Shown here: positions 1 through 24,739 of the stretch, in pieces | Position numbering within the stretch: the first letter of the stretch is position 1 | How the letters are laid out: every line of letters begins with the position of its first letter | Assembly (NCBI GenBank): GCA_034435435.1 | Contig: DAOTXN010000052.1 | Coordinates: 42,927-106,926 of the forward strand | Reading direction: 5' to 3' | DNA length: 64,000 nt | Source: Anaerolineae bacterium | GTDB taxonomy: Bacteria; Chloroflexota; Anaerolineae; S140-20 | Program-made: the position numbers and the translations under genes | The notes under the pieces: generated by a model | Seen by the model: the letters and a program-made list of their open reading frames with translations, nothing else | What the model was told of the DNA's origin: nothing | The model's database searches: none

Positions 1-2019
1 CTGCTCAACCAGCAGTTCGATGTGCCCCAGCACCAATTCCACATCCCCCCGGCCACGTCTTATCTACGGCTACATGCGCTAAATCAGTACGGCGACGATC
101 TGTCATCCTTCCGCTTTACCGTGCTCGCAGCCAACGCGCAAAAACAGCCCGTGAGTGGTTTGGAAATCGGGCGCGGGGGATTGGGGGTGCGCGGTGTAGT
201 GCCTGTTAGCTACCAAGGCCAACACATCGGCAGCGCCGAATTCGGCCTTAACGTGGACCTGACCTTAATACAAGCGTTGAAAGAGCAGTTTGGCGCCGAT
301 TGGCAAATCCTGCTTAGTCGCGGCCCGGCTCAAGTCGCGACCTTTGAAGGTGCTACCGGCGAAGCCGCAGGCCCCATCCCCGACCTGCTCCTCCAGGCCA
401 GCACGCTCGAAACCCCTCTCTTCGGAAGTGATGACAGCTATCGGCGGGCGTTGGGTGGGAACATCAGCATCTCACGTACCGGATCCCGCCAACACAACTA
501 TGCTATCCTCAGTGCGCCTCTTTTGGACTATTCGGACAACGTCATAGGAGTGGTCGATATCATCTCTGAACGCACTGACGTTTTAACAGCCCAAAGCTCT
601 CGTTTTATCCAATCCATGGGCATCGTGTTGCTGACTCTTTTGACTGGCGGCATCGGCGTCGCTGTGTACATCACTCGCACACTACGCCCGATCAGTGCGC
701 TGACCGCAGCCGCCACGGATATCGCGGCTGGCGACCTCCAACGCGCCGCCGAGGTCGAAAGCCAAGACGAGATCGGCATGCTGGCCCGGGCTTTCAACAG
801 CATGACTGCGCAACTGCGCGAGCTGATCAACTCGCTCGAACAACGCGTGACCGAGCGCACACGAGACCTAGAAGAAAGCCACCATCGCATCCAGCGCCGA
901 GCCGCCCAATTGGAAGCCTCGGCCCGGGTGGCCCACGCGGCTGCCTCTGTACTCGACCCGGACGAGCTCTTGCGCCAAATTGTCCATCTCATCTCCGATT
1001 CCTTTGGACACTACCACACGGGCATTTTCACTCTGGACGAGACCGGGCGCTGGGCCGTGTTGCGGGCCGCCAACAGCGCAGGTGGACAGCGCATGTTAGC
1101 CCGTGGACACCGGTTAGAAGTGGGAGTGACGGGTATTGTAGGCAACGTCGCCCACACCGGCCACCCCCGCATCGCTCTCGACGTTGGAGCAGATGCTATT
1201 TACTTCGACAATCCCGATCTGCCAGAAACCCGTTCCGAAATGGCCCTGCCGCTCAAAGCTCGCGGTCAAACCATCGGTGTCCTCGATGTGCAAAGCACTC
1301 ATCCGGATGCTTTTGATCAAGAAGACATTGCCGTATTGAGCACCCTAGCCGACCAGGTCGCCGTTGCCCTGGATAACGCCAGGCTTTACCAAGCCAGCCA
1401 AAACGCCTTGACCCAGGTACAGGCCATCCAGAGCCAATATGCACAGCAGGCCTGGCACACCTACGCCGATCAGCTCAAGCCACAGTTGTACGAATTTCGC
1501 CTCAAACGACCGGACGCCGGTGTATCAGACGACTCGCCTATTGTCACTCTTGACGCCGACAGCCCGACCCAAGATGATCAAGCCACCATGTCCGTCCCGT
1601 TGCACGTTCACGGCCAAGTGATCGGCGCGTTAGGCTTGCAAGATGCGCCTGGCCGCACCTGGACCGACGATGAAATCGCGCTCGTCGAAACCATTGCCGA
1701 TCAGATTTCGCAAGCTATGGAGGCGGCCCGCCTGTTCGAAGAAACCCAACGCCGGGCGCAGCGAGAACAACTCCTCACCGCAATCACCGACAAGATTCGC
1801 TCTGCTCACGACATGGACGGCGTCCTACGCATCGCGGTGCAAGAGATGCGTCGCGCTCTGGGCGTGAGCCACGCCGCCATCCGCTTGGGCACTGAGACGC
1901 ATTTGCAACGCACTTCAAAAACACCCGGCCCCACATCCGCAGTCCCAAAAAACGGTGATGCGTCGGAACCGGCGAGTGCCAAGCCCGAACTAGACGCAGG
2001 AGACGGCCGAGATGATTAA
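1..2019 (+). CDS. Sensor protein (5' end outside window): Cache-like extracytoplasmic domain, TM, HAMP, two GAF domains, no enzymatic output domain
   Basis: The frame is open from base 1, so the GTG at 22 is probably internal. TM IVLLTLLTGGIGVAVYI is followed by HAMP signature DEIGMLARAFNSMTAQL. GAF signatures: YHTGIFTLD, LPETRSEMALPL, GVLDVQST. The stop overlaps the next start by 8 nt. Confidence 0.75.
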   Translation: MLNQQFDVPQHQFHIPPATSYLRLHALNQYGDDLSSFRFTVLAANAQKQPVSGLEIGRGGLGVRGVVPVSYQGQHIGSAEFGLNVDLTLIQALKEQFGADWQILLSRGPAQVATFEGATGEAAGPIPDLLLQASTLETPLFGSDDSYRRALGGNISISRTGSRQHNYAILSAPLLDYSDNVIGVVDIISERTDVLTAQSSRFIQSMGIVLLTLLTGGIGVAVYITRTLRPISALTAAATDIAAGDLQRAAEVESQDEIGMLARAFNSMTAQLRELINSLEQRVTERTRDLEESHHRIQRRAAQLEASARVAHAAASVLDPDELLRQIVHLISDSFGHYHTGIFTLDETGRWAVLRAANSAGGQRMLARGHRLEVGVTGIVGNVAHTGHPRIALDVGADAIYFDNPDLPETRSEMALPLKARGQTIGVLDVQSTHPDAFDQEDIAVLSTLADQVAVALDNARLYQASQNALTQVQAIQSQYAQQAWHTYADQLKPQLYEFRLKRPDAGVSDDSPIVTLDADSPTQDDQATMSVPLHVHGQVIGALGLQDAPGRTWTDDEIALVETIADQISQAMEAARLFEETQRRAQREQLLTAITDKIRSAHDMDGVLRIAVQEMRRALGVSHAAIRLGTETHLQRTSKTPGPTSAVPKNGDASEPASAKPELDAGDGRDD

Positions 2020-5000
2020 CTCACCTCGCAAAACCAAACCAATCAAACCTTTCTCTCTCTTGCAGCGCGTCCACCAAGCCAGCCGGGCCATTGCCGCCGC
2101 GCGCGACGAACCGGCCATCGGCCAGGCGCTTATAGCATTTGCCGCTTCGGGCGACGTACACGCTGCACGTTTGCTCATTTTTACTGACGATCACCCCCCC
2201 TCTATCGAAATGAGGGAAGGCTGGACTATCGATGATCGCCCGGCCCAACCTTATGGCGTTTGTCTGCCTCTGGATGATTATCCATTACTGGAGTATATAA
2301 CGGCAGACGAGCTTCTTATCTGTGAAAACGTCAAAACCGACGAACGACTAAACGAGCCTACTCGCACAATGATGGCTGTTTCCGGCCTGGAATCCTTTGC
2401 CGTCATTCCTCTCACTTCGACCGTAACCGATTCGTGGCTTGGCGCGGTCATCGTGGGACGCGACGATCCCTCCACGTTCGACAAAGAGTTTGTCTACGCC
2501 TGGTGGACGCTGGCCGGTCAGGCCGCTGCTGCGCTAGAAAACCTGCGTCTGTTGGAGCGTGTCGAGCAAGACCGCCAACGCTATTGGGATCTGTACAATC
2601 ACGCTCCCGACTGCTACTTTTCCATTGGACCTGATGGCGACTTGCTTGAATTCAACGACACAGGATTGCTGTGGCTGGGTTACGAACGTCAAGACGTGAT
2701 CGGCAAAATGCGCATGCCCGACATCCTCGCATCACACAGCAAGCCGGCCTTTCTGGCCTTGTTTCCCCAACTCAAAACCCAGGGGCAAATCAGCAACGTT
2801 GAGATCGAATTTCAAAGACGTGATGGTACGATTTTCCCCGTTCTCATCGACGCCACTGCGCTTTACGATTCTGATGGCAAATTCCTACGCGGACGAACTA
2901 TTGCCCGCGACATCACTGCACGCCGCACGACCGAAGCCGCGCTTCGCGAGAGCGAAACAAAACACCGTTTACTGTTGAACAGCATCCTATCGCCCATCTT
3001 GGCCGTGCAAGATGACATGACTATCTTGTACTGTAATCAGACCTACGCCGACCTGGTGTTGCTGCCCGCGCACGCGCTAGAAGGCGCTAATCTATTGAGT
3101 GTGTTCCCGGACTTTGAAAAAACTGAATCGTATGCAGCCTTTATGCAGGCCCTCAGGACCGGGAAAAACCAAATCGCTAGGGGCCCCCTGGGTCATCGCT
3201 ACGTGGAAGCCTACATCTATCGCACTCCGTGGGGCATCCTATCGGTGGCCCAAGACGTGACCGAACGCGAACAGGCCACGGCCGAACGCGAGCGCCTGCT
3301 CACTGACTTGGGCAAACGCGCCCTTCAGCTTCAGACCGCGGCCCAAGTCTCTCGGGTGGCCAGCAGTATCATTGATCTGAACGAACTGCTTCAACAAACC
3401 GTAGACCTGATTCGCGATCGTTTTAATCTGTACTATGCTGGAATTTTCTTGATCGACGAGCAGGGTGATTGGGCTGTTCTACGCGCTGGCACCGGCGAGG
3501 CCGGCCGCACCCAGATCGAACATCAACACAAGCTCCAAGTAGGTGGTGAATCTATGATCGGGCAGTGCGTGATCACCGCCCAAGCACACATCGCTTTAGA
3601 CGTCGGCGAAGAACCACACCGCTTTAACAATCCCTATCTGCCCGCCACACGCTCCGAAATGGCCCTACCGCTGATCAACCGCGGCCAGGTCATTGGCGCA
3701 ATGACGATTCAGAGCACTCAAGAAGCTGCTTTTTCCTCAGAGGACATTTCGGTCCTGCAAACTATGGCCGACCAACTCGCCAACGCAATCCAAAATGCCC
3801 GACTGCATCAAGAGCAACAGCAACACGCTAAAAAACTGGCCGACCTACACGATGTGTCGGTAGAACTGGCCCAGGAGACGCAAGACCTGAACACGGTGTT
3901 CGATATCATCACCCGGCGCACGATGTCGCTGCTGGATGCCGATGGGGCCGGTGTGTGGTGGTGGCACGCGGACGAACAGGAACTAGAGCTTGTTTATACC
4001 TTGCAGGTGGGCGACGTGGCAATGACCGGGCGGAGGCTCAAACCCGGTGAGGGGCTGAGCGGACGCGCTTTTACCGAGGGTAAACTTCAGATTGTAGACG
4101 ACTATCTGGCCTGGACAGGAAGCGCCGCTGCATTTGACGACGCCCCTTTCTTTTCCGCTCTGGCCGCACCGATGATCTGGCGTGGTCAGACCATCGGTGT
4201 TCTAGCTATCACACGCAGCCAACCGGGTTATCCCTTTGCCGCCAACGAGCAACACTTGGCCGAGTTAATGGCTGGCCAAGCCGCTGCCGTTATTCAAAAC
4301 ACCTTTCTTTTCCAACAAACACAACAACAACTCCAAGACCTGACGGTGCTATTAGACACTAGCGCAGCCGTCTCCACCTCGCTGGACACAGACCAAATCC
4401 TGCACACCACGGCCCAGCACATCACCCGCGCCCTGGCAGCCGATGGCTGCGCTATTTCCATCTGGGATCAGGAACAAGACCTCCTCGTCACCCAGCTCGA
4501 TTATGCTTGCCAATCCGACACAACCGTGACCGAAGCCGCCGGAACGACTTACCCTCTGGCCGATTATCCGGCTTCGCGCCAAGTGCTCATCACACGCCAG
4601 CCTCATGTCGTGCAGATCAGCGACCCCAATGCTGACCCAGCCGAAAAAGCATGGATGATCAGCCAAAAAATCGCTTCCGCGCTCATGGTTCCACTGATCG
4701 TACGGGACCAGGTGATTGGCATGTTGGAACTTGTGCAAGCTACGCGAAGCGGAGAACGTCCTTTCACGCCGAATCAGATTGCACTGTGTCAGACCTTGTC
4801 TAACCAGGCGGCAGCTGCTCTGGATAATGCTCAACTGTTCAAGGAACGCTCTCAACGCGTCGAAGAATTGGCCGCTTTGAACACAGTAGCCACCGCCGCC
4901 AGCCGGTCGCTGGAAATTCAGGAACTCTTGGACGCCGCCCTCGATGCGGCCATCACGGCCTTGGGCTATGACGCCGGCCTGATCAGCCTCTACGACGAAC

Positions 5001-7009
5001 CATCGGCCTGTCTTTATCTGACTTCACAACGCCATATTCCCGATCCGATGGTCAGGCACTTTGAACAGCACGGCCTGGGCGGAACCCTGTGTGACGTGGT
5101 TTTTCAAACCGGAAAGGCTCTGCTCATAAGCGACGTCTTGCAGGGTACTCCAGTAGACGTAAGCGGTCTCGTCAAAAATGGTCTGCGGGCGTATGCCGGC
5201 GCTCCCATTGTGCACCAGGACAAAATTCTGGGCACCGTCTGCCTCTTTCACCGCTCGGTCTATGAATTGAGCGCCGCCCGACTCGGCCAACTCGAAGCCA
5301 TCGGGCGACAGCTTGGCGTTGGGGTTGAAAACGCACGCCTATTTGAAAGCGCCCAACGCGCCTCTACAGAACAACAAAGACGCGCCGAAGAGCTGCGCGT
5401 CATCAACGAACTGGGCCAAACCTTGACCGCCATTCTCGACATCGATCAAGTGCTCTATGAAACCTACCAGGGCGTTTCGCGTCTGTTGGATACCACCAAC
5501 TTTTACATTGGCCTGTACGATGCCGAGACCCACTCGGTCACTTTTCGGCTCAACATCACCGAGTCTGAAATCGACAAGGAAATCACCACCATATCCGCCG
5601 ACCGAGGTCTTACCGGGTACATTATCCGCAATCGCACCAGCCTATTGATCCCGGAGAATCTGCGAGATTGGCTCAAACAGCATGGCATGGAAAGCGTAGG
5701 GCAACCGGCTGCCTGCTGGTTGGGTGCACCGTTGATGGTGGGTGAACGGGTCATCGGTGTGATGGCCATACAAGACTACCGCACACCGCTTCTGTACGAC
5801 GAACATGACCGCGACGTATTTTTCACTATTGCCAATCAGGCAGCTGTTGCCATCCAGAACGCTCGATTGTTTGACGAGACGCGCAGACGGATTGAAGAGC
5901 AGACCACGTTGGCTGAAATGGGCCGCACTTTGACAACCATGCTAGACGTAGCAACTATCGTCGAAAACATCTACCAGTACACGGCCCGTCTGATGGACAC
6001 CACCAACTTTTACGTCGCTATGTATGATCCAGAGACCGAGGAAGTATCGTTTCCACTGGCCATCGAAAAAGGAGAACGTGTCCCGTGGCGCTCACGACGG
6101 CTGGGTAAAGGGCTAACCGAGCGTGTCATTCACAGCCGTGAACCAGTGCTGATCGCAGAAAATATTTTCCAATGGCTAGCCAGTCAGGGCATAGAAGCCA
6201 TCGGCGCAGAAGCGCAATCATGGCTAGGCGTGCCGATGATGATAGGTCAACAAGTCATAGGCGTTATTGCCGTTCAGAGCTACACCACACCTCGCCTATA
6301 CAACAAGCGGGATCAAGATGCTCTCATTGCCATTGCTAACCAGGCCGCCATCGCTATCCAAAACGCCCGATTGTTCGAGCAGACCCAAACAGCCCTGGCC
6401 GAAGTAAAAGCCACCCACCGTCGCTACCTGCGCGAGCAATGGGAAGGCATATTAGATGCCACTCCCGACCGCGCCTGGGGTTACGTGGATGGGCCAGCAG
6501 GTCTGTCTCCCGCCGCTACCTTGTGGACAGACGAAATTGAACAGGTTATTGCTACCGGTGAGTTAGTCACCCTCACTGGGCGCCCCAGTCAGGAGTCGAA
6601 CCTATCGGACGGCCCCGCGTCTGACACGCCCCAACGCAGCGCCCTGGCTGCACCCATTCGCCTGCGCGGCCAAACCATTGGCGTGCTAGACTTTTACAAC
6701 GAGGGAGGCCAGCGTCGCTGGACCGACGACGATAAAGCGTTGGTCCAAGCCTTGGCCGACCAGATTGCCCAGGCCCTCGAGACCCAGCGCCTGTTCGAAC
6801 AAACCCAGCGCCGCGCCTACCGTGAGCGCTTGACCAGTGAGATCGCCGGCAAGATCCGCGCCGCAAGTGACGTGCATAGCATATTGGAAACCGCCGCCGA
6901 GGAATTGGGACGGGCGCTGGGCGTGTCGCGCACTCTGGTCCATCTGGGTAGCTCGATAGATGGTTCCCAACTAGCGAGTTCTAGTGACACAGACGATAAA
7001 GAGGTTTGA
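2012..7009 (+). CDS. Soluble 1665-aa multi-domain sensor: N-terminal GAF, two PAS-like domains, about eight further GAF domains, no output domain
   Basis: No TM segment. PAS-like blocks: RRDGTIFPVLIDATALYDSDGKFLRGRTIARDITARR and WGILSVAQDVTERE. GAF ends of type LADQ.A.AIQNARL recur many times. It carries the same YYAGIFLID / LPATRSEMALPL / GAMTIQST GAF type as its neighbours. Confidence 0.75.
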   Translation: MINSPRKTKPIKPFSLLQRVHQASRAIAAARDEPAIGQALIAFAASGDVHAARLLIFTDDHPPSIEMREGWTIDDRPAQPYGVCLPLDDYPLLEYITADELLICENVKTDERLNEPTRTMMAVSGLESFAVIPLTSTVTDSWLGAVIVGRDDPSTFDKEFVYAWWTLAGQAAAALENLRLLERVEQDRQRYWDLYNHAPDCYFSIGPDGDLLEFNDTGLLWLGYERQDVIGKMRMPDILASHSKPAFLALFPQLKTQGQISNVEIEFQRRDGTIFPVLIDATALYDSDGKFLRGRTIARDITARRTTEAALRESETKHRLLLNSILSPILAVQDDMTILYCNQTYADLVLLPAHALEGANLLSVFPDFEKTESYAAFMQALRTGKNQIARGPLGHRYVEAYIYRTPWGILSVAQDVTEREQATAERERLLTDLGKRALQLQTAAQVSRVASSIIDLNELLQQTVDLIRDRFNLYYAGIFLIDEQGDWAVLRAGTGEAGRTQIEHQHKLQVGGESMIGQCVITAQAHIALDVGEEPHRFNNPYLPATRSEMALPLINRGQVIGAMTIQSTQEAAFSSEDISVLQTMADQLANAIQNARLHQEQQQHAKKLADLHDVSVELAQETQDLNTVFDIITRRTMSLLDADGAGVWWWHADEQELELVYTLQVGDVAMTGRRLKPGEGLSGRAFTEGKLQIVDDYLAWTGSAAAFDDAPFFSALAAPMIWRGQTIGVLAITRSQPGYPFAANEQHLAELMAGQAAAVIQNTFLFQQTQQQLQDLTVLLDTSAAVSTSLDTDQILHTTAQHITRALAADGCAISIWDQEQDLLVTQLDYACQSDTTVTEAAGTTYPLADYPASRQVLITRQPHVVQISDPNADPAEKAWMISQKIASALMVPLIVRDQVIGMLELVQATRSGERPFTPNQIALCQTLSNQAAAALDNAQLFKERSQRVEELAALNTVATAASRSLEIQELLDAALDAAITALGYDAGLISLYDEPSACLYLTSQRHIPDPMVRHFEQHGLGGTLCDVVFQTGKALLISDVLQGTPVDVSGLVKNGLRAYAGAPIVHQDKILGTVCLFHRSVYELSAARLGQLEAIGRQLGVGVENARLFESAQRASTEQQRRAEELRVINELGQTLTAILDIDQVLYETYQGVSRLLDTTNFYIGLYDAETHSVTFRLNITESEIDKEITTISADRGLTGYIIRNRTSLLIPENLRDWLKQHGMESVGQPAACWLGAPLMVGERVIGVMAIQDYRTPLLYDEHDRDVFFTIANQAAVAIQNARLFDETRRRIEEQTTLAEMGRTLTTMLDVATIVENIYQYTARLMDTTNFYVAMYDPETEEVSFPLAIEKGERVPWRSRRLGKGLTERVIHSREPVLIAENIFQWLASQGIEAIGAEAQSWLGVPMMIGQQVIGVIAVQSYTTPRLYNKRDQDALIAIANQAAIAIQNARLFEQTQTALAEVKATHRRYLREQWEGILDATPDRAWGYVDGPAGLSPAATLWTDEIEQVIATGELVTLTGRPSQESNLSDGPASDTPQRSALAAPIRLRGQTIGVLDFYNEGGQRRWTDDDKALVQALADQIAQALETQRLFEQTQRRAYRERLTSEIAGKIRAASDVHSILETAAEELGRALGVSRTLVHLGSSIDGSQLASSSDTDDKEV

Positions 7010-7046
7010 ACAGTATCACTTGCTCACTCTGTCAAGCGAGGCATAA

Positions 7047-9176
7047 ATGAAGAAAAGGGCTACCAGACACATCTGGACAGTAAGGCAAAGCATCAGGACA
7101 AGATTGTTGCTCTTGCTATTGAGCCTGACGACGGTATCAGTAGTCGTCATCGCTTATCTTGGCGTCAACTCGATTTCGAGAGCAGGGCAGAGCGCCCAAC
7201 AAACTGCCACTGCGACGCTACGCACTCAAGCTGAGGAATTCCTCGTCCAACTTACGGTAGGCGCCGCAAAGCGAGATGACCTCGTTTTGGAGCGCGCGCG
7301 CCAGGATGCCAAGAACGTGGCAAGCTTTGCCGCAGGCATCTTTGAGCAACCGGATGCTTTTGCCAGCGAGAGATACTGGCGTGCTCAAAACCACATGTTT
7401 GTGGGAGCAGAGGGTCAATATATCAACGGAGAAAATGATATTAGCACGGTCTTTGTGCCTAACAGCATATCGGTTGACCCTGAGCTAATAAGAAACCTGG
7501 AGTTGACGGCGTATCTGGACTTGCTGTTTGCCTCTGTCTATGAAAGCAACCCCAATTCAGTCGCCATTTATATTATCACTAAACAAGGGGTCTCCCGCCT
7601 CTACCCCAACATCAATCTGGGCGACATTCTTCCGGCAGACTTTATGGCTACTGAGGATATTTTTTACACCAGCGGGACGCCGGAAAGTGACCCGGAGCGC
7701 GCGGTGATCTGGACGCCGGTTTATAACGACCCCGCGGGTCAGGGATTACTTGTCACAGCCGTGGCGCCTATTTATTCCAGTCAGCAAGAATTCTTGGGAA
7801 TCATTGGCATTGACGTCAGCCTGACCAAACTCAGCGCCGACATCGAAGCCACTACCCCGATAGCAGGCGGTTACGCTTTCCTCATTAACGAGCAGGGACA
7901 CGCCATTGCGCTACCTGCACAGGGATACTCTGATATCCTGGGGCGCGCACGCGAGAGCGGCGAGTTGGGAACCGATCTTACCGGCGCAGACCCCGCCTTT
8001 GCGCCTGTTATCAGCGAGATGATGGCTGGATCTACCGGCTTTCAGAGCGTCCAAGAAGGCAACAGAGAACTGTTTGTAGCCTATGCCCCTTTGAGTGGCA
8101 CCAACTGGAGTCTGGCCAACGTGGTCGAGGTAGAGAAGATGCTTCAGGCTGTTGCTGCTATGAAGAAAGAAGTCGAATCCTCGACCCAGGAATTGATCTC
8201 GACGCGCATCCTACCGGCTGGTGGGATTATCCTCATCATCGCGGCAGTGGCCGGCCTTTTTTCGACCAATCGTCTGATCAAACCCATCCAGAGCCTGGCG
8301 ACGGCTGCACAACAAATCGGCAGCGGCAGATGGGATACGCCGCTCCCGCCAGTCAGCGACGATGAAATTGGCGTCCTGACCAGAACATTTGGAACAATGT
8401 CCGCACAGATCCGCGAACTGGTTACGGGCCTAGAAGCGCGTATCGCCGAGCGCACCGCCGATCTGGCCGCCCATGGTGAAAAGCTGGAAAGCGCCTATCG
8501 CACGCTTGAAGACACAGTTCACCAAAGTCAGCGTCGCGCCGAACTGCTTCAAGCCAGCGTCCAAGTCAGCCGCGCTGTGGCGCAGATTCACGATCTAGAC
8601 CTACTGCTCCCAAAAATGACCCAACTCATCAGCCAGCACTTTGGCTTTTACCACACCGGTATCTTTCTCATTGACAGGCCTAGCGGTTATGCCGTGCTGC
8701 GCGCCGCCAACAGCCCCGGCGGACGGCGCATGCTGGCTCGCCAGCATAAATTGCGCGTCGGCTCTGAAGGCATCGTAGGCTACGTGACCAGCACAGGGCG
8801 GCCCCGCATCGCCCTGGATGTGGGTATTGACGCTGTACACTTCAAGACGCCCGAACTACCCGAGACCCGCTCCGAGATGGCCGTGCCGCTACGCAGCAGC
8901 GACGAGATCATCGGCGCACTCGATGTGCAGAGCACCCAAGAGGCTGCCTTTGACGAAGAGGATATTGCCGTGCTAACGGGCTTGGCCGACCAAATCGCCA
9001 TCGCCATCCAAAACGCTCAACTTTTCCGACAGACCCAGGCAGCCCTGGCCGAAGCCGAAAAAGCTTATCGCCGCTACTTGCGCGATGAATGGGATAGATT
9101 CCTGGCGGGCGAGGCGCAACGCCCATCTCGTGGCAGCGGCGCGTTTTCACACGTGAGCGAGATCGACCATAACTGA
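7047..9176 (+). CDS. Membrane sensor: N-terminal TM, dCache-like domain, TM, HAMP, single GAF; the shortest paralog (lacks the C-terminal module of its neighbours)
   Basis: TM LLLLLLSLTTVSVVVIAYLGV. Cache-like block: GLLVTAVAPIY...FLGIIGIDVSL. HAMP: DDEIGVLTRTFGTMSAQI. GAF: FGFYHTGIFLID, LPETRSEMAVPL, GALDVQSTQ. It ends shortly after the YRRYLRDEW linker. Confidence 0.75.
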   Translation: MKKRATRHIWTVRQSIRTRLLLLLLSLTTVSVVVIAYLGVNSISRAGQSAQQTATATLRTQAEEFLVQLTVGAAKRDDLVLERARQDAKNVASFAAGIFEQPDAFASERYWRAQNHMFVGAEGQYINGENDISTVFVPNSISVDPELIRNLELTAYLDLLFASVYESNPNSVAIYIITKQGVSRLYPNINLGDILPADFMATEDIFYTSGTPESDPERAVIWTPVYNDPAGQGLLVTAVAPIYSSQQEFLGIIGIDVSLTKLSADIEATTPIAGGYAFLINEQGHAIALPAQGYSDILGRARESGELGTDLTGADPAFAPVISEMMAGSTGFQSVQEGNRELFVAYAPLSGTNWSLANVVEVEKMLQAVAAMKKEVESSTQELISTRILPAGGIILIIAAVAGLFSTNRLIKPIQSLATAAQQIGSGRWDTPLPPVSDDEIGVLTRTFGTMSAQIRELVTGLEARIAERTADLAAHGEKLESAYRTLEDTVHQSQRRAELLQASVQVSRAVAQIHDLDLLLPKMTQLISQHFGFYHTGIFLIDRPSGYAVLRAANSPGGRRMLARQHKLRVGSEGIVGYVTSTGRPRIALDVGIDAVHFKTPELPETRSEMAVPLRSSDEIIGALDVQSTQEAAFDEEDIAVLTGLADQIAIAIQNAQLFRQTQAALAEAEKAYRRYLRDEWDRFLAGEAQRPSRGSGAFSHVSEIDHN

Positions 9177-9226
9177 CAAGCCCGACGGGAACACATTCTT
9201 CCTATCGTCGGGTTGGAGGCAAAACA

Positions 9227-11788: not shown

Positions 11789-11836
11789 GCACCAGGCTGA
11801 GCAATTACAAGCCAGCGAAGAATAAGGAGGAAAAAC

Positions 11837-13063: not shown

Positions 13064-13074
13064 GGAGTGACATT

Positions 13075-15534: not shown

Positions 15535-15567
15535 TTGGTTTGGTCCCTGTCTATCGAGGGGAATATA

Positions 15568-18500
15568 ATGACCGAAAAACCACCCGCTATGCACCATACG
15601 TACCCACAGCGTGATCCTGCGTCCCAGACCAGACGAGGGGGGCGCGGCGAACGCGATTCAATCCGGCTTCCGACCGACTCGCGGGACAGCGCATCAGAGG
15701 TCTGGAGCACCAGCGCCTTTGTGCAGCTCAGCCAAGCCCTGCTCACGGCCAGCACACTGCAAGAGGTGCTGCACGCCTGTCTGGAGGTGATCGAACCGAC
15801 CGTCGTCAACGGCGTCACCGTCTTGCTCACCGGCGGGCCACCGAGCGACAGCTATTTAGAGATCGCTGCCGTTTGGGAATGCAACGGCCATCCTTACCTC
15901 CCTCTAGGAGCGCGCTTTAGCACCCGCGATTACGCATTTCAACCTTTGTTAACTGGCCAAGACGCCATCGTCATCAACGCTTTGGAAACCGATTTTCGTA
16001 TTCAGGAGCCACTGAGATCGCTGCTCTTGGGCGCCAACGTTCAGGCCCTGGTAGCTCTACCTTTGCGCTCCGGGCGCGAACAGTTTGGCCTCATTATCAT
16101 CGACCGCGACGATCCGCGCGCCTTTGCCCCCGAGCACATCCACATCTACCGAGCCGCCGCCGCATTGGCCGCCGGCGCGGTTGAAAAGCTGCGTCTCATC
16201 CGCGAGGCCAATCGGGCCTTAGCCGAAACCTCTACCCTGTACGAAATCAGCCGGCGACTCTCTCACTCACGTAACGTGAGCGATATCTTGTTCAGCATCC
16301 TCGATAGCCAACTGTTCGGCGCCGCAGGAGGAAGCATTGCTTTACTGGAACCCTCACCCATGGAGGGATCTGGGCAGGATGTTCAAGTCGAGTCAGTTGG
16401 GTCGCAGGTTCAGCCGAACAAACAATTGGTCTTTTGGGCCGCCGCAGGCGTGGGCGCTGAGAGAATTGTCGGTATGCGCATGCCCCTCTCTCAGGGCATT
16501 GTCGGCTGGGTGGTGCGCGAAAACCAGGCCGCCATCGTGCCCGACGCCTACGCCGACGAGCGGTTTTATCCTCAAATTGACGAGGCCACATCTTTCCAGA
16601 CCCAGTCAATCCTGTGTGCTCCCTTGCGCGTCGAAGGACGCGTCATCGGGGCTATCGAACTGGTGGACGTGCCCAACTCCTATCTCAGTCAAGAGGGCGT
16701 GCGCCTGTTGGAACAGATCGCCGATCAGGCCGCCCTGTTCCTCGAAAATCAACGCCTCTTGGCCCAAACTCAGCGCCAGGCCCAAGAACTTTCCACGTTG
16801 CTCAACATCACACAAGAGATGGCTGCAACCCTGGACCGGGAACAAACACTCCGCCTTATCACCTCACGCATTCTCGACTTGGTCAAAGCCGATGGCTGTC
16901 ACGTCTTTCTGCTACAGCCGCGCCCCAACGACAAGCCATTTCTAAAGCCTGTAGCTTCCAGCGACCGCGACGCCGCCTACATCCTCAACACGTCGCTGGA
17001 GTTGGGCCAGGGCATCACCGGAGGGGTAGCCCAGAGTGGTGAGGGTGTCTTGATCAACCGCGTAGATCTGGACCCACGCGGCTTTACCGTCCCTGGAACC
17101 GAGCAAATACCCGAGAGCTTGATCTCGGTGCCACTGGTGTATGAGGGACGCATCAGCGGCGTGATGACCGTCAGTCGGCGGGGCGAGCAGCCCTTTACAT
17201 CGAGTGACTTGAACATTGTTTCTGCGATGGCCAGCCAGGCCGCAACAGTGCTGGAAAACGAGCGCTTGTTCGACGAGGCCCAACAACGCACCCGAGAACT
17301 GGCCGCGTTGAACGCCGTGGTCAGCACCGCCAGTCAGTCGCTGACGTTGGAAGAAATTTTGGACGCCACGTTGCAGCGAGTTGCCGATGTGTTACCCGAC
17401 ACGGCCGGCCTTATCTGTTTGCGTGATGAAAACAGCGGCGAACTACAGATCGCCACCCATCGCAACCTGCCCGCTGCTTTGGTACGCACATTGATCACCA
17501 AAGGTATGCGCGGTACGCTGTGTGAAGTAACAGCCACGCAACGCCAGGCCTACACCGTGGCCGATCTCACTGCTAGCGCGCCCGTGGATACCAGTGGGCT
17601 AGTGAAAGTGGGACTATACGCCTACTTGGGCGCCCCGTTGATCGCTCGCGGGCAGGTTTTGGGCACACTCAGCGTCTTTGGCGCCCAACCCAACTTCTTC
17701 ACTTCCTCCGACGCCGACCTGATGACGGCCATTGGGCAGCAAGTAGGCATTGCCGTGCGCAATGCTCAACTTTATGCACAGACCGAGCGTGCTTTAAAAG
17801 AGTCGCGCAGCCTATATGACACAAGCGCAGCCATGTCCGAAACACTCGACCTGGAGGGTGTGCTACAGATCGCTGTGAACCGCATGGCCGAATACGTCGG
17901 CGCCGATCAATGTCGCCTCGTGCTGTTCGATGAAAGGCTAGGGTACGGCGCTGTGGTAGCCGAATATCGCTCCACGCCGAATGTCGAAACGATACGCATT
18001 CCGATGGCAGATAACCCCTCGTATCAGGTGTTGCGCGACACAGGCCAGGCCATCGCTGTCGAGGACGTGCGCACCCACCCGATCACTGCCGCTATCAAAG
18101 AGATGCTCGCCGAATATGGCGTCAAGTCAATGCTTCTGGTGCCGCTCATCGTCCAGGGGCATCTAATCGGTTCCATTGACCTAGATTCCACCCGCACGCA
18201 TCGCAAATTCACCCAAGCAGAACTTAATTTTTGCCGCACTCTGGCCGACCGCGCTGCGCTGGCCATCCAAAACCGACAACTCTTGGCGCAAACACAATAC
18301 GCCTTGCACGAGACAACCCGGCTCTATCGGGCCAGTCGAGCACTTAACCAAGCTCAAAACCTCTCGGATGTTCTCTACGCCATCACCGACAATTTGCCAA
18401 TTGAACAGATCGACCAATGTTGGATGGCGCTGACCGAATCCGAGTTTGCTGATCAAGACCCTACTCTGCGCAGCTTTCAGATCAAGGCCCTGTGGGATCA

Positions 18501-21312
18501 CGAAGGCGATGCCGGGCTGCAAGACGTCCGCTTCACTGCCCAGGAACTCCCCATGCTGGCTCAACCAGGTCTCGACCGCGTGTGGGTGATCAACGACCTG
18601 GACAGCGAAGCCCGTCTCGACGCTCGTAGCTTGTCTACGTTGCGCGAGATGGGCATCAAATCGGCGCTTATGATTCCCCTCCTCACCGGTGAGTCTCTCC
18701 TGGGTTGGCTGGTCCTCATTACTCACCACCACACGCACATCTTTGATCCCGACCAGGTCCACCCCTACCAGGTTCTGGCCGATCAGGCCGCGGTTGCAAT
18801 ACGCAATCAGCAGTTGCTCGCGCAGGTACAGACCAGTTTGCAGGAGGTTGAGACGGTACACCGCCAATACCTGCGCAGTGAATGGAGCGAATTCTTGCGC
18901 TCGCGCGAAGAATACCATACCGCCTTTGCCTGCGACCGAGGCGCGCTCTTGCCTCTGTCAGAATTCGATCACCCGCTGATCGAACAGGCGATAAATCAAG
19001 GCGATCCCGTGGCCTACGTCGCCCAGTGCGACGACGACAACGGTGATGCAATGCCAAGGGCCAGCCTGGTGGCCCCGCTCAAGGTTCGTGGGCAGGTGCT
19101 AGGTGTGTTAGGCGTCGAAGACCCCGACCAAGCGCACGAATGGACGCCCGAAGAGATCAACACACTCCAAGAAATCGCCGAACGAGTGGCCCAGGCTATC
19201 GAAAGCGCCCGCTTGCTGGACACCACACAGACCAGCCTGGCCGAACAAGCTCGCCTGGCTGTGCAACTCGAGGCCGCCAGCAAGATTAGCCGTGCGGCTA
19301 CGTCGATCCTCGAACTGGATGTGCTACTGCCTAGCGTGGTGGAGTTGATCCGCGATCACTTTAACTACTACCATGCACAGGTGTTTCTGATCGACTCGAC
19401 TCAAAGCTGGGCCGTGCTGCGGGCCAGCACCGGCGAGATCGGACAAAGGCTACTCCAACGGGGTTACGCTCTGGAAGTGGGAGGATCGTCTATCATCGGC
19501 TATGTTACCCACACCGGCCAACCGCGCATCGCTCAAGACGTAGCCACAGATGCGGTTCACCTGAAAGACGAATTGCTGCCCGACACCCGTTCGGAAATGG
19601 CTATCCCGCTACGCACCGGCGAGCGCATTATCGGCGCGCTGGACGTGCAAAGCACCGAATCTGACGCCTTTACACTCGAAGACGTGCAGGTGCTCTCCAC
19701 CCTAGCTGACCAATTAGCTGTGGCTATTGACAACGCTCGGTTGTATCAGGAACAACTAGAGGCCGCTGAAAAACTGCGCGAGGTGGACCGGCTCAAATCG
19801 CAATTCTTGGCCAATATGTCCCACGAATTGCGCACACCGCTCAACTCGATCATCGGCTTTTCGCGGGTCATCCTGAAAGGCATCGACGGCCCGCTGACCG
19901 ATTTGCAGAAACAGGACCTTACGGCCATTTACAACAGTGGACAAAACTTGCTCAAGCTTATCAACGACATTCTGGACCATGCCAAGATCGAAGCTGGCAA
20001 GATGGAAATGGCTTTTGAGGAGACCGATCTGAACGAAGTCATCGCTGGAGCTATGACTACAGCGCAAGCCTTGGTCAAAGATAAACCCCAGGTTGAATTA
20101 CGCTACACTCTCGCGCCAGACTTACCCACCATCATCGCCGACGCCACCCGAGTGCGTCAGGTATTGCTCAATTTGCTCTCCAACGCAGCCAAATTCACCC
20201 AAGAGGGATACATCGAACTGACGGCTACCCACGACGAGCGATCTGTCATCATCAAGGTCAGTGACACAGGCGCAGGCATTCCACCCGACAAATACGACGT
20301 CATCTTTGAGGCCTTTGAGCAAGTAGATGGCTCACCCACACGCCGAGTGGGCGGCACCGGCTTGGGCCTGCCCATCAGCCGGCAGTTCATCGAGATGCAC
20401 GGAGGGCGCATCTGGGTGGAAAGCGAGATTGGCGCCGGATCCACGTTTTTCGTCCAACTGCCCATCCGCGGCCCACACACCGAGCCTGTCGTCCGAGACC
20501 AGCCAGTTGTCAGCACCCACCAGCGCCTGGTCCTGGCCATTGATGACGATGATGATGTGATCCAGATGTACAGACGGTATCTCGAACGGCAAAACTACCA
20601 AGTTCACGGCCTGACAGACAGCGAGCAAGCCGTCGAAATAGCTCGTGAGCTGCGACCTTTTGCCATCTTGCTTGACTTGCTGATGCCGAATAAGGATGGA
20701 TGGGCGATCATCCGCGAGCTTAAAGCCAACCCAGAGACCCAAGATATGCCCATAATTATGTGCAGCATCGTGAACGCTGCAGGACGTGGTTTTAGCCTGG
20801 GCGCCGCCGATTTTCTGGTCAAGCCCATCACGGAGAAGCAATTACTGACCACTTTGGCCCGTCTCCAAGACAGTTCACCGGAGGGGCGGCCCAACCGCCC
20901 TCTGCAAGTGCTCATCATCGACGATACCGCCGACGACCGCAAGCTCTTGCGCCGCACCCTGGAATCGACCGACGGCGCATATCACGTCCTGGAAGCCAGC
21001 AACGGCTATCAAGGTATCGACATGATTCAACAGCAACGACCTGACCTGGTCGTGTTGGACCTGATGATGCCCGAAATGGATGGCTTTGCCGTGCTTGAAT
21101 TGCTCAAACGAGACGAAGAGCTACGCCAGATCCCCATCATTATTGTTACGGCTAAAGAACTCACAGAACAAGAACGTATCCGTATCAACGGACAAGCCGC
21201 CGCCTTATTCCAAAAAGGTCTGTTCAAAGCCGAAGAGTTGCTTCAAGACGTGAATTATGCTCTGCATCAGGTAGGCCGCGTGACCCAGGAAAGCACAAAG
21301 GAAGAGGAATGA
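15568..21312 (+). CDS. Giant hybrid sensor histidine kinase: about nine GAF domains, HisKA, HATPase_c, two receiver domains
   Basis: H-box: MSHELRTPLNSIIGF. N-box: LLSNAAKFT. G-boxes: DTGAGIP and GGTGLGLPISRQF. REC1: ILLDLLMPNKDG. REC2: VVLDLMMPEMDG...TAKELT. The ATG at 15568 follows GAGGGG; an alternative TTG at 15535 directly abuts the upstream stop. Confidence 0.85.
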   Translation: MTEKPPAMHHTYPQRDPASQTRRGGRGERDSIRLPTDSRDSASEVWSTSAFVQLSQALLTASTLQEVLHACLEVIEPTVVNGVTVLLTGGPPSDSYLEIAAVWECNGHPYLPLGARFSTRDYAFQPLLTGQDAIVINALETDFRIQEPLRSLLLGANVQALVALPLRSGREQFGLIIIDRDDPRAFAPEHIHIYRAAAALAAGAVEKLRLIREANRALAETSTLYEISRRLSHSRNVSDILFSILDSQLFGAAGGSIALLEPSPMEGSGQDVQVESVGSQVQPNKQLVFWAAAGVGAERIVGMRMPLSQGIVGWVVRENQAAIVPDAYADERFYPQIDEATSFQTQSILCAPLRVEGRVIGAIELVDVPNSYLSQEGVRLLEQIADQAALFLENQRLLAQTQRQAQELSTLLNITQEMAATLDREQTLRLITSRILDLVKADGCHVFLLQPRPNDKPFLKPVASSDRDAAYILNTSLELGQGITGGVAQSGEGVLINRVDLDPRGFTVPGTEQIPESLISVPLVYEGRISGVMTVSRRGEQPFTSSDLNIVSAMASQAATVLENERLFDEAQQRTRELAALNAVVSTASQSLTLEEILDATLQRVADVLPDTAGLICLRDENSGELQIATHRNLPAALVRTLITKGMRGTLCEVTATQRQAYTVADLTASAPVDTSGLVKVGLYAYLGAPLIARGQVLGTLSVFGAQPNFFTSSDADLMTAIGQQVGIAVRNAQLYAQTERALKESRSLYDTSAAMSETLDLEGVLQIAVNRMAEYVGADQCRLVLFDERLGYGAVVAEYRSTPNVETIRIPMADNPSYQVLRDTGQAIAVEDVRTHPITAAIKEMLAEYGVKSMLLVPLIVQGHLIGSIDLDSTRTHRKFTQAELNFCRTLADRAALAIQNRQLLAQTQYALHETTRLYRASRALNQAQNLSDVLYAITDNLPIEQIDQCWMALTESEFADQDPTLRSFQIKALWDHEGDAGLQDVRFTAQELPMLAQPGLDRVWVINDLDSEARLDARSLSTLREMGIKSALMIPLLTGESLLGWLVLITHHHTHIFDPDQVHPYQVLADQAAVAIRNQQLLAQVQTSLQEVETVHRQYLRSEWSEFLRSREEYHTAFACDRGALLPLSEFDHPLIEQAINQGDPVAYVAQCDDDNGDAMPRASLVAPLKVRGQVLGVLGVEDPDQAHEWTPEEINTLQEIAERVAQAIESARLLDTTQTSLAEQARLAVQLEAASKISRAATSILELDVLLPSVVELIRDHFNYYHAQVFLIDSTQSWAVLRASTGEIGQRLLQRGYALEVGGSSIIGYVTHTGQPRIAQDVATDAVHLKDELLPDTRSEMAIPLRTGERIIGALDVQSTESDAFTLEDVQVLSTLADQLAVAIDNARLYQEQLEAAEKLREVDRLKSQFLANMSHELRTPLNSIIGFSRVILKGIDGPLTDLQKQDLTAIYNSGQNLLKLINDILDHAKIEAGKMEMAFEETDLNEVIAGAMTTAQALVKDKPQVELRYTLAPDLPTIIADATRVRQVLLNLLSNAAKFTQEGYIELTATHDERSVIIKVSDTGAGIPPDKYDVIFEAFEQVDGSPTRRVGGTGLGLPISRQFIEMHGGRIWVESEIGAGSTFFVQLPIRGPHTEPVVRDQPVVSTHQRLVLAIDDDDDVIQMYRRYLERQNYQVHGLTDSEQAVEIARELRPFAILLDLLMPNKDGWAIIRELKANPETQDMPIIMCSIVNAAGRGFSLGAADFLVKPITEKQLLTTLARLQDSSPEGRPNRPLQVLIIDDTADDRKLLRRTLESTDGAYHVLEASNGYQGIDMIQQQRPDLVVLDLMMPEMDGFAVLELLKRDEELRQIPIIIVTAKELTEQERIRINGQAAALFQKGLFKAEELLQDVNYALHQVGRVTQESTKEEE

Positions 21313-23066
21313 CTCGGACATCCACCTCCCTCATGTCATCAGATGCATGGCTCGAATGCGCCGCCTGCGGCCAACGTCACCCGCTGAATGCCCGCATCAC
21401 ACAATGCGAAGCGTGCGGCGAGGACTGGCTCGACGCTCGCTACGACTATGCGGCGCTGGGCGAGTTGTGGCGACGAGAACTGCACCGCCGACCGTTCAAT
21501 AGCATCTGGCGTTATCGCGAATGGTTGCCGCTGCGCCGCGACGAAAACATCGTCTCGATGAACGAAGGCGGCACCCCACTGCTCCACTGCAAAAACCTGG
21601 GTTTGATGCTGGGTTGCCCCAATATTTACATCAAGGATGAGCGTCAAGGCCCCACCGGCTCTTTCAAAGACCGGCAGGCATCGCTGGCTATCTCAGTGAT
21701 GAAAGAAATGGGTCTCTCGGAAGCCGTTTTGGCCTCTACCGGCAACGTCGCCATCTCCTACGCTGCATACGGCGCGCGGGCAGGCATTAAAATCTGGGCC
21801 TTTGTCACCAGCACCGTCCCCGCCGACAAGATGCGCGAAGTGGCGCTGTATGGCGCAGAGGTCGTCAAGGTCACGGCGACGTACGACCAGACCAAACAGG
21901 TAGCGGCCCGCTTTGCCGAGCACAAACAACTGCACCTCGACCGGGGCATCCGCAGCATCGCCGCCAAGGAGAGCATGAAGACGGTGGCGTTCGAGATCGC
22001 CGAACAATTGGGCCTGCTCGCCGGCCGCCCTATGAGCGAGCCGTTTTGGCGGGTGATGCCTGGTCAGGCCTGGCGCGTGCCCGACTGGTACTTTCAGGCC
22101 GTCAGCGGCGGATTGGGACCGGTGGGGGTGTGGAAAGGCTTTGAAGAACTCAAGCGCATGGGGTTGACCGACCACCTTCCCAAACTGGCCTGCATCCAGG
22201 CCGCTGGCTGCGCCCCTATGGTTCACTCGTTCCAGAAGGGATTGGAACACGCCGAGTCGGTGCTCAACCCTCAAACGCTCATCACCACGGTGGCCACCGG
22301 CAGCCCTGGCCCGGCCTACACCTTTTTGCAGCGCGTGGTTCGAGAATATGGAGGTGCCTTTGAGTGTGTGACCGACGAAGAAGCCTTCCGCGCCATGCAC
22401 CTGATGGCTAAACTGGATGGCTTTTCGATGGAGCCAGCCGCGGCGATAGCCTTTGCCGGCCTGTTCAAAATGGTGCGACAAGGGACTATCCAACCTGACG
22501 AGGTGATCGTAGTCAATTGTTCCGGCCACACCTTCCCGGTCGAAAAACACCTGCTCAACGAAGGCTGGGCGCGTAGTCTGGATTTGGGCATTGAGGCGCC
22601 CTTAGCCGAGGCAGTCGCAGCCCCAGAGACCAAAGTGGCTTTTCCACTGCCTCAAGAAGAGGGCCTGCTGGTCTCGTTGGAAAGGCTGGACGACCGCGTC
22701 AAGAGCGTCGCCATCGTCGAAGACGAGCCGGACGCAGCGCGGCTGTTGCGCCGCATCATCCAGGCGCGCGGGGGCTATCAGATTTTCGAGGCTCATAACG
22801 GCCGCGAGGGGCTGGAACTGATCCGCCGCGAACGCCCCGACCTGGTGTTGCTGGACCTAATGATGCCGGAGATGGACGGCTTTACGGTGCTCGGCAAAAT
22901 GAAAGAGCAAAAAGAAACCGCCGACATCCCGGTCATCGTCATCACCGCCAAAGACCTGACCCTACAGGAACGCCGGCGGCTCAGCGGACACGTCGAGTCG
23001 CTGCTGCAAAAAGGCTCCTACATGGACATGGAATTGTTGGACGATCTGATGGATGTGTTGGCGTGA
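21309..23066 (+). CDS. Threonine synthase-like PLP-dependent enzyme with N-terminal zinc ribbon, fused to a C-terminal response-regulator receiver domain
   Basis: Zinc ribbon: CAACGQ...CEACG. PLP-lysine block: GPTGSFKDRQASLAIS. ASTGNVAISYAAYGARAG matches the ThrC family. C-terminal REC: VAIVEDEPD...LLDLMMPEMDGF...VITAKDLT. The ATGA start overlaps the kinase stop. Confidence 0.8.
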   Translation: MTRTSTSLMSSDAWLECAACGQRHPLNARITQCEACGEDWLDARYDYAALGELWRRELHRRPFNSIWRYREWLPLRRDENIVSMNEGGTPLLHCKNLGLMLGCPNIYIKDERQGPTGSFKDRQASLAISVMKEMGLSEAVLASTGNVAISYAAYGARAGIKIWAFVTSTVPADKMREVALYGAEVVKVTATYDQTKQVAARFAEHKQLHLDRGIRSIAAKESMKTVAFEIAEQLGLLAGRPMSEPFWRVMPGQAWRVPDWYFQAVSGGLGPVGVWKGFEELKRMGLTDHLPKLACIQAAGCAPMVHSFQKGLEHAESVLNPQTLITTVATGSPGPAYTFLQRVVREYGGAFECVTDEEAFRAMHLMAKLDGFSMEPAAAIAFAGLFKMVRQGTIQPDEVIVVNCSGHTFPVEKHLLNEGWARSLDLGIEAPLAEAVAAPETKVAFPLPQEEGLLVSLERLDDRVKSVAIVEDEPDAARLLRRIIQARGGYQIFEAHNGREGLELIRRERPDLVLLDLMMPEMDGFTVLGKMKEQKETADIPVIVITAKDLTLQERRRLSGHVESLLQKGSYMDMELLDDLMDVLA

Positions 23067-23110
23067 TGAGTGAAACGTCATGAGTAATGCGTGATTCACG
23101 TTTCACGTTT
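23061..23110. repeat. Intergenic hairpin element, CGTGAAACG / CGTTTCACG family (copy 1), between convergent genes
   Basis: GTGAAACGT pairs with ACGTTTCAC (9 bp). Tandem TTCACG-type heptamers (ATTCACG TTTCACG TTTTGCG) are present. A related copy lies at 41230-41295. Confidence 0.5.
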
Positions 23111-24053: not shown

Positions 24054-24163
24054 TTCACTTCCTCCAGCTGCCCCCGAGAAAAGCCCAAGACGAGCCAGTT
24101 GCCATCCTGCTACAATGATGCTACACTGTCTGGCGTACAACGTCTTCAGAACGCGGCGCCAGG

Positions 24164-24739
24164 ATGAAAACACTTGCTCGTAAAATAAAAACGGTGTGGC
24201 AAAGACTCAACCGCTCGCAGCGTCGCGCATTGGCCTTACTGGGGATGATCAACCTGATAGTTCTGGGTATCCTCGCGTTATTGCTGCTGCGGCCGCCCAT
24301 GGCACAAATCGCACTCTTGCAGTCGCCGCTCGCCGCGTCCCAGGTAGAAACCTGTCGTCAATCGGTGAGTCGGGCGCTGCTCCAGCGCGGGTCCAGCGGC
24401 CTGGTCCAAGCTTTGGCCGACGGCAGCCTCCTCATCCAGTTGGAGCGTCCAACGGCCAACCCTGGTCCTTCGGTTGGAACTGGCTCAAACCACCTGCGCA
24501 GCGCCGCCGACGCCGCCGTTTGGCTGGCGTTTGAGGCGCTTTCTGGGGCCGGGCGCGACGCCTGCCAGGGTTTTCGGACCGTTCACGTCACGGTCGTGAT
24601 TCAGATCGCCGATTCGCAGCCTGTGCGGGTGACAGCGCGCGCCGCGCTATCCGACGTGCTAACCTGGTCGCAGGGCCGATTCGACGACGCCGAACTGGCC
24701 CGGCGTGTGGAATACCATGCGCCCGACGCCAGCCCTTGA
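24164..24739 (+). CDS. Hypothetical membrane-anchored protein
   Basis: 191-aa ORF with a single N-terminal TM (ALALLGMINLIVLGILALLLL). No family recognised. Confidence 0.45.
   Translation: MKTLARKIKTVWQRLNRSQRRALALLGMINLIVLGILALLLLRPPMAQIALLQSPLAASQVETCRQSVSRALLQRGSSGLVQALADGSLLIQLERPTANPGPSVGTGSNHLRSAADAAVWLAFEALSGAGRDACQGFRTVHVTVVIQIADSQPVRVTARAALSDVLTWSQGRFDDAELARRVEYHAPDASP

Follow-up and report, generated by a model that had tools for sequence, protein, structure and literature searches.

Two-component signalling normally depends on one sensor that is fused to one kinase. In the NarX and NarQ kinases, a periplasmic sensor is followed by transmembrane (TM) segments, a HAMP domain, a signalling helix, a GAF-like domain and the DHp and CA domains (PMC8199190). 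In the NreA-NreB-NreC system of Staphylococcus carnosus, the output-less protein NreA, a single soluble GAF domain that binds nitrate itself, modulates by contact a histidine kinase encoded adjacent to it (PMC12423327, PMC8139620). In Rhodobacter sphaeroides, the cytoplasmic chemosensory clusters are positioned by the ParA-like ATPase PpfA (PMC3964821, PMC6829392). We compared these and other systems with an operon of GAF-domain sensor genes, part of which occupies the first 23 kb of a 64,000-nucleotide (nt) stretch of DNA from an Anaerolineae bacterium (below, the window; contig C52, DAOTXN010000052.1, positions 42927-106926, in an assembly of 5.35 Mb and 184 contigs). These sensors carry no output domain, and most of them end in a short common tail; they are encoded together with histidine kinases and a threonine-synthase-like enzyme fused to a receiver (PALP-REC).

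The operon resembles chemosensory arrays (MCP-CheW-CheA-CheY) in that many receptors differ in their sensor domains, have one conserved membrane-distal cytoplasmic module in common, and are encoded alongside one or two kinases, single-domain CheY-like receivers and an ATPase of the ParA-like kind, but its shared module is GAF-GAF-tail, its kinase is of the HisKA class, and its output is a pyridoxal phosphate (PLP) enzyme and not a motor. It resembles the stressosome (RsbR paralogs-RsbS-RsbT) in having paralogs with variable N-terminal sensors and one conserved C-terminal domain, which would jointly control one kinase, although its receptors are mostly membrane proteins. Pfam searches of all 16 products of the operon found none of the domains MCPsignal, CheA, CheW, CheB and CheR, and no match to a STAS domain or an RsbT-type serine kinase. 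Since MCPsignal, CheA, CheW and STAS domains are absent, the operon is not a member of the chemosensory or stressosome families. The module order sensor, TM, HAMP, helix and GAF, with GAF as a probable transmission module, is that of NarX and NarQ, and the exact NarX/NarQ layout is present in the upstream kinase of the operon and in fused orthologs (P0010); however, nine receptors of the operon stop after their GAF domains, the tail replaces DHp-CA, and the kinase is a separate protein. As with NreA and NreB, output-less GAF proteins are encoded beside a histidine kinase, but here membrane sensors and HAMP precede the GAF domains, each kinase has many receptors, and the tail is specific to these receptors. 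Finally, a periplasmic binding-protein gene (g5) adjoins a Cache-type membrane sensor gene (g6), as in LuxP-LuxQ and TorT-TorS, whereas g6 has no kinase domain and g5 is of the LivJ/Peripla_BP_6 type.

We class the operon as two-component signalling with separate accessory sensors. With moderate confidence, we favor the reading that its nine output-less sensors act via two GAF histidine kinases on the threonine-synthase-like enzyme, all within one signalling operon. We found no published description of the operon, the tail or the enzyme-receiver fusion in the literature, and the operon is apparently undescribed. Anaerolineae are an abundant, little-studied bacterial class, in which this conserved operon separates up to ~20 sensors, nearly all with the small conserved tail, from the kinase. 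If the sensors converge on the kinase, bacteria would have here a new way of integrating many signals, the tail would serve as a docking or transmission module of a new type that could help to rewire sensors, and the enzyme would be a rare response regulator with a PLP enzyme as output.

Gene content and extent of the operon

The ORF listing and translations showed that positions 1-23066 of the window hold eight co-directional genes with all reading frames intact. These genes (lengths in amino acids, aa) and the gene that follows them are as follows.

g1, 1-2019 (+): membrane sensor, dCache_3-HAMP-GAF-GAF-tail, 5' end beyond the window edge (Pfam, TM segments)
g2, 2012-7009 (+): soluble protein of 1665 aa with an N-terminal GAF, two PAS, ~6 more GAFs (7 GAF stretches) and the tail (Pfam, no TM segment)
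g3, 7047-9176 (+): membrane sensor, dCache_1-HAMP-GAF, 709 aa, without tail, stopping in the linker after the GAF (Pfam)
g4, 9227-11788 (+): unannotated periplasmic domain followed by HAMP-GAF-GAF-tail, 853 aa (Pfam, TM segments)
g5, 11837-13063 (+): Peripla_BP_6 (LivJ-type) binding protein with a signal-peptide/lipoprotein-like N-terminus (Pfam, NCBIfam)
g6, 13075-15534 (+): membrane sensor, dCache_1-HAMP-GAF-GAF-tail, 819 aa (Pfam, homologs, AlphaFold2 (AF2) models)
g7, 15568-21312 (+): soluble hybrid histidine kinase, 8 GAF stretches-HisKA-HATPase_c-REC-REC, 1914 aa (Pfam, NCBIfam)
g8, 21309-23066 (+): zinc ribbon, threonine-synthase-like PALP enzyme and C-terminal receiver (Pfam, NCBIfam, PDB)
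EamA-family transporter gene, 23103-24173 (-): convergent with g8, stop codons 36 nt apart (Pfam)

Neighboring genes overlap by 8 nt at 2012-2019 (g1/g2) and by ATGA at 21309-21312 (g7/g8), and the other gaps are 37 nt (g2/g3), 50 nt (g3/g4), 48 nt (g4/g5), 11 nt (g5/g6) and 33 nt (g6/g7), the last presuming that g7 starts at ATG 15568 with the ribosome-binding site GAGGGG. The genes g6 and g7 lie in the same frame with a single TGA between them; read-through or one broken gene was rejected because g7 has its own ATG and ribosome-binding site and g6 ends in the tail like its paralogs. A consensus match found no promoter- or terminator-like sites in the plus-strand gaps of positions 5000-24500, with a promoter consensus that may not suit Chloroflexota.

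The complete g1 protein has 770 aa, its start lying 293 nt upstream of the window, and the array extends 14 kb further upstream on the same strand. The whole unit covers ~37 kb with 16 co-directional genes (C52 28919-65992), of which the window holds the 3' two-thirds, and encodes nine output-less sensors, two kinases, two small receivers, a ParA-like ATPase, the binding protein and PALP-REC. Its upstream part consists, in order, of a 125-aa and a 136-aa receiver (REC), a membrane HAMP-GAF-HisKA-HATPase kinase, the ParA-like ATPase, four sensors (u4-u7) and the start of g1, and all genes there overlap or have small gaps. The four sensors are, in order, a dCache-HAMP-GAF protein of 731 aa, a 7TM-GAF-GAF protein of 653 aa and two dCache-HAMP-GAF-GAF proteins of 847 and 979 aa. 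A V4R-domain gene (L001:2955-3575, -) is divergent from the first receiver gene, and the 344-nt gap between them is most likely the promoter region of the whole array.

A preliminary description of this DNA had reported co-directional ORFs with small gaps or overlaps, a first gene cut by the window edge, and the domains of g1-g7, all of which the ORF listing, translations and Pfam bore out. It had also placed the kinase last and taken it for the single catalytic output. Because g8, which it did not describe, closes the interval, the kinase is neither the last gene nor the only catalytic protein. A single catalytic output is true when the sensors inside the window are considered, but the array runs on upstream with a second kinase, and the statement therefore fails for the whole cluster.

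Pfam searches of all 16 products and of their leftover pieces detected no output domain in the nine sensors (g1-g4, g6, u4-u7). They are not histidine kinases, as neither HisKA or another DHp domain nor HATPase_c was matched, even by the leftovers at E<=1. The earlier claim that the five sensors in the window have no output domain was upheld: a cryptic catalytic domain was looked for, and g1-g4 and g6 gave no match to a kinase, cyclase, phosphodiesterase or DNA-binding domain, even in leftover pieces at E<=1. A permissive Pfam scan of the unassigned pieces gave weak GAF and PAS matches only; for g6, NCBIfam was searched as well.

In the layout common to the receptors, a variable sensor (dCache, 7TM, helical or PAS) precedes HAMP, a coiled coil and a GAF; a second, small GAF usually comes next, and the tail closes the protein. 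By hydrophobicity, two membrane segments flank the sensor domain in g1, g3, g4 and g6, and there are none in g2, g7 and g8. The first GAF after HAMP is a true GAF (Pfam GAF/GAF_2, E 1e-16 to 1e-35), modeled by AF2 with pLDDT >90 and matched by Foldseek to the PtsP GAF 3trc with a TM-score of 0.86, and the second is a small five-stranded GAF-like domain in the AF2 model. The GAF-coding DNA of g3 and g4 (8617-9056 and 10647-11086) forms the longest internal DNA repeat of the cluster, with 78% identity over 446 nt. The repeat fits an old tandem duplication; recent gene conversion among GAF modules was rejected at this modest DNA identity, the best in the cluster. The binding protein g5 is probably a lipoprotein, as its N-terminus suggests, and the pairing of a g5-type binding protein directly upstream of a g6-type dCache sensor is kept in six fetched loci (L002-L007).

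The shared tail and its place in fused and split loci

Eight of the nine output-less sensors, all except g3, end in a common tail of ~55 residues with the consensus TQRRAxRExLxxxITxKIRxxxDxxxILQTAxxELxxxLGxxxAxVRLG. In the window, a tail profile located it at four places.

g1 tail, 1708-1896 (+): E 9e-29
g2 tail, 6767-6952 (+): E 3.7e-27
g4 tail, 11414-11608 (+): E 1e-24
g6 tail, 15304-15492 (+): E 2.3e-29; in the AF2 model a helical hairpin prolonging the last GAF helix

When the profile was applied to the whole 5.35-Mb assembly, it matched the eight sensors at E 1e-26 to 1e-33 and nothing else at this level. It aligned to the starts of internal GAFs, its matches to the inter-GAF junctions of multi-GAF proteins being weak (E 1e-3 to 1e-8), and at the GAF/HisKA junction of g7 the match was limited to the shared GAF helix. 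The tail is not a complete GAF fold: Pfam GAF covers only positions 1-26 of 133 on the g6 tail (E 0.03), and AF2, with a 79-sequence alignment, gave a prolonged last GAF helix (46 residues in total), a turn, a 16-residue helix (pLDDT ~88) and then coil. This pattern corresponds to the helix-turn-helix-strand that precedes the sheet in the first GAF of the AF2 model, and the tail thus looks like a linker helix joined to the opening helix and strand of a GAF, the remainder being absent. Foldseek searches with the tail model returned partial GAF matches only, none of which covered the tail.

The motif TQRRAxRE...IT.[RK].R...D..[IV]L.TA..EL...L is kept across 137 distinct tails; its Glu is present in 89% of them, and the equivalent place is variable in complete GAFs. 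In the same set, the stop codon follows a median of 11 residues past the tail end. Since the tail keeps a motif of its own and the proteins end so soon after it, it is, as judged from its conservation, a module and not debris. Searching protein representatives with a GAF-plus-tail profile gave matches dominated by giant multi-GAF proteins, so that the size of the family could not be read from them.

Two other origins of the tail were considered. The tail has a local likeness (LLTAITDKIRSA vs FLANMSHELRTP) to a HisKA/DHp helix, from which it might have degenerated with the His replaced; this was rejected because the register counted from the GAF helix is off by 8 residues and because the profile matches GAF starts and not the HisKA junction. 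The tail could also supply the opening helix and strand that the small second GAF lacks, that is, a circular permutation, which is unlikely as a general rule: in the upstream sensor u4 and in the 605-aa class (P0016/P0022) the tail comes straight after a complete GAF, g7 has this small GAF but no tail, and the small GAF has five strands of its own in the AF2 model.

Homologs of g6 come from metagenome-assembled genomes of Anaerolineae/Chloroflexota and fall into two classes, one tail-bearing and without kinase (605-932 aa), and the other consisting of full hybrid kinases (1143-1433 aa) with 40-43% identity over ~90% of g6. Both forms were found in orthologous loci. L006 and L007 encode a binding protein, a fused dCache-HAMP-GAFx3-HisKA-HATPase-REC protein (1250 aa), PALP-REC, EamA, TrkA, SpoIIE, a sigma factor and DegV. 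In L003, which has the same flanking genes, the binding protein is followed by the same sensor, here with the tail at its end (932 aa), by a methyltransferase, a small protein and a separate GAF-GAF-HisKA-HATPase-REC kinase (840 aa), and then by PALP-REC and EamA. The DNA of L003 and L006/L007 is 83-88% identical on both sides, and the ~3-kb indel between them starts and ends in the coding sequence of the GAF C-terminal helix, the tail occupying the HisKA position at the same junction. Because the loci are orthologous, with flanks of this identity and an indel within the GAF helix, the comparison shows that, in terms of gene structure, a tail sensor plus a soluble GAF kinase is the split equivalent of a single sensor kinase. 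This locus provides the strongest argument for sensor and kinase acting together.

Kinases, enzyme-receiver protein and their co-occurrence with the tail

The two kinases of the operon are both of the HisKA class. The scores were 70 bits for HisKA and 102 bits for HATPase_c in g7, whose H-box is SHELRTPL, and 59 and 93 bits in the upstream membrane kinase. The 125-aa upstream receiver scored 93 bits with Response_reg. The ParA-like ATPase has a ParA/MinD P-loop with deviant Walker A (AAA_31 178 bits, CbiA 70 bits) and stays under the NCBIfam cut-off for ParA partition proteins (99.5 vs 180).

Kinases of related loci differed in their N-terminal parts. The terminal kinase of G119:C1 (L106 6670-9819, -) begins with only the last two strands and the final helix of a small GAF (…ATLRLLDETQQRRWTDDEQLLIKQVTDQLSLALENARLF), a GAF that is thus N-terminally incomplete. 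In L003, a helical domain of ~145 residues without Pfam match occurs twice (5827-6279 and 6336-6770, 37% identical), as a stand-alone 151-aa protein and as the N-terminus of the split GAF kinase, and a similar domain stands at the start of the G049 kinase.

The protein encoded by g8 carries a four-Cys ribbon at its N-terminus, followed by a fold-type II PLP enzyme (PALP 211.7 bits against a cut-off of 35) and an intact receiver (Response_reg 77 bits). Its nearest solved structures are threonine synthases (PDB 2zsj, E 3e-47), and it misses the NCBIfam equivalog cut-offs for ThrC (NF006050, 256.8 vs 303; TIGR00260, 159.4 vs 167.1); separate ThrC-like genes without receiver are present in the same genome. 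The PLP lysine (SFKDR), the STGN loop and, in the receiver, the Asp in LLDLMMP and the Lys in QKG do not vary among six g8 orthologs. The fusion of enzyme and receiver occurs in at least 584 species genomes and in >7,000 protein clusters, where it is named merely 'threonine synthase' or 'pyridoxal-phosphate dependent enzyme'. The best 80 PALP-REC loci are all from Chloroflexota (Anaerolineales, Thermoflexia, Ardenticatenaceae, Promineifilaceae and Caldilineae).

Of 66 evaluable PALP-REC loci from different species, 62 have a GAF kinase as the gene directly upstream, and 40 have one or more tail genes in the 10 kb upstream. Judging by gene context, g8 is most likely the cognate response regulator of g7. 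The EamA gene is also a neighbor of PALP-REC in L003, L006 and L007 and lies <=600 nt downstream in 19 of 76 loci, and the transporter is possibly an accessory gene that stands next to PALP-REC in part of the family.

The same genome has a paralogous module (C136:4000-23999, L021) in which a fused dCache-HAMP-GAFx3-HisKA kinase of 1358 aa is followed by a receiver protein, by a 738-aa PALP enzyme that carries two receivers and shares 49% identity with g8, and by two small receivers. No tail-bearing sensors were found in this module.

The preliminary description had raised conservation of the gene neighborhood in related genomes as a question, and such conservation was found in many families of Anaerolineae. 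Strong tail matches in 41 relatives gather on one contig and one strand per genome, and the loci fetched from other assemblies show the same co-directional trains of tail sensors with interspersed binding proteins. An order recurring in several families is that of receivers, sometimes a membrane HAMP-GAF kinase, a ParA-like ATPase, a variable number of tail sensors, a soluble multi-GAF tail protein, a GAF kinase and PALP-REC; examples are G002, G012, G038 and G005, the last with ~20 tails along 50 kb. G119, a closed genome, encodes two receivers, 12 tail proteins, ParA, a GAF-HisKA-REC-REC kinase and PALP-REC.

We sampled 301 genomes of the class, representing 176 genera, and found tails in 69 genomes (46 genera), PALP-REC in 82 and both in 60, giving an odds ratio of 64 without phylogeny correction. 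Because the layout recurs, tails co-occur with PALP-REC (60/69) and an orthologous locus exists in fused and split form, the functional coupling of sensors and kinase is well supported.

Proposed mechanism and competing explanations

The following account of sensor-kinase contact, tail function, phosphotransfer and enzyme regulation is inferred. Each receptor would sense its own ligand, g6 probably via the binding protein g5, and the signal would pass through HAMP and the GAFs as transmission modules, comparable to the GAF-like domain of NarX/NarQ. Having no kinase domain, the receptor would then act in trans by protein-protein contact on the co-encoded GAF kinases, for which GAF-GAF hetero-oligomerization may be hypothesized. 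From the kinases, phosphoryl groups would go to the receiver on the PLP enzyme and probably to the small receivers too, so that the output would be direct control of an enzyme and not transcription. The earlier idea of several inputs feeding one system, as opposed to a set of independent two-component systems, agrees with the gene order, the co-occurrence and the fusion and fission of sensor and kinase. Its single transmitter has to be given up, as the operon holds two kinases, and the likely final output is the receiver-fused PLP enzyme, which it did not include.

More tentatively, the tail receptors may form a mixed higher-order complex that is positioned or partitioned by the ParA-like ATPase, with the tail docking on the GAF-rich kinase; the operon would then encode a third machine of the kind 'many receptors, one kinase', after chemosensory arrays and stressosomes, with phosphorylation of the PLP enzyme as output and possibly an exported product derived from an amino acid. 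This extension is doubtful in our estimation.

Several observations weigh against a convergence of the sensors on the kinases. The AF2 monomer models give the tail as a helical hairpin without a partner, and no N-terminal docking domain was found to be common to the terminal kinases, whose N-termini differ from genome to genome. A hybrid kinase that carries two receivers usually requires an HPt relay, and no HPt domain was found in the operon. In the co-occurrence sample, PALP-REC was not detected in nine genomes with tails, and tails were not detected in 22 genomes with PALP-REC; at least two of these 22 have tail genes nearby, and the overlap of 60 genomes is therefore an underestimate. Shared ancestry, on the other hand, inflates the co-occurrence counts.

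The kinase-less receptors could instead be a functional family with another target, which might be the ParA-like ATPase, the PLP enzyme itself or a small molecule in the GAF pocket, and share the operon through co-regulation. No contact surface was identified on the kinases, a ParA-like gene lies inside the arrays of five well-assembled genomes, GAF domains elsewhere bind small ligands, and the solved structures nearest in fold to the first GAF are GAFs that bind ligands, all of which would suit such a target. However, the fused form in L006 and the split form in L003 indicate that the same sensor-GAF module can drive HisKA directly, the GAFs follow HAMP at the transmitter position known from NarX/NarQ (PMC8199190), and the sensors have no enzyme domain for making a messenger. 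We rate another target as possible, with a rather low probability.

The tail proteins could also be negative regulators, that is, decoys which form inactive mixed dimers or complexes with kinases of the same HAMP-GAF core and thereby damp signalling. The HAMP/coiled-coil/GAF core is indeed common to the sensors, the upstream membrane kinase and the fused orthologs, and the tail replaces the HisKA domain at the same junction, but the extracytoplasmic domain has diverged from sensor to sensor and a binding protein is dedicated to one of them, which fits signal input better. Furthermore, the only kinase in several genomes (e.g., G119) is soluble and lacks HAMP, so that mixed dimers via a shared membrane core are impossible there. 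A decoy role is accordingly unlikely.

The preliminary description had also named a random pile-up of paralogs; such a pile-up, or one of decaying truncated histidine-kinase genes without joint function, is very improbable, for although the genes are paralogs from tandem duplication (as in the GAF regions of g3 and g4) and the tail resembles a domain cut short, the frames are all intact, the tail with its own motif is spread over many families, the gene order is conserved and the tail genes track PALP-REC. Convergence of the sensors on the two kinases and the enzyme is the reading that we retain.

Elsewhere in the window, two further genes were noted. An IS-type DDE transposase gene (DDE_Tnp_1 with the associated N-terminal domain; 27891-28880, +) lies between a gene for a large beta-helix/NosD/DUF11 surface protein (24769-27381, -) and the complex I (nuo) genes. 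Within the nuo row, a gene for an AbiEii-type toxin (type IV toxin-antitoxin nucleotidyltransferase; 36303-36995, +) sits between the NuoF-like and NuoG-like genes and overlaps the start of the latter at 36980.

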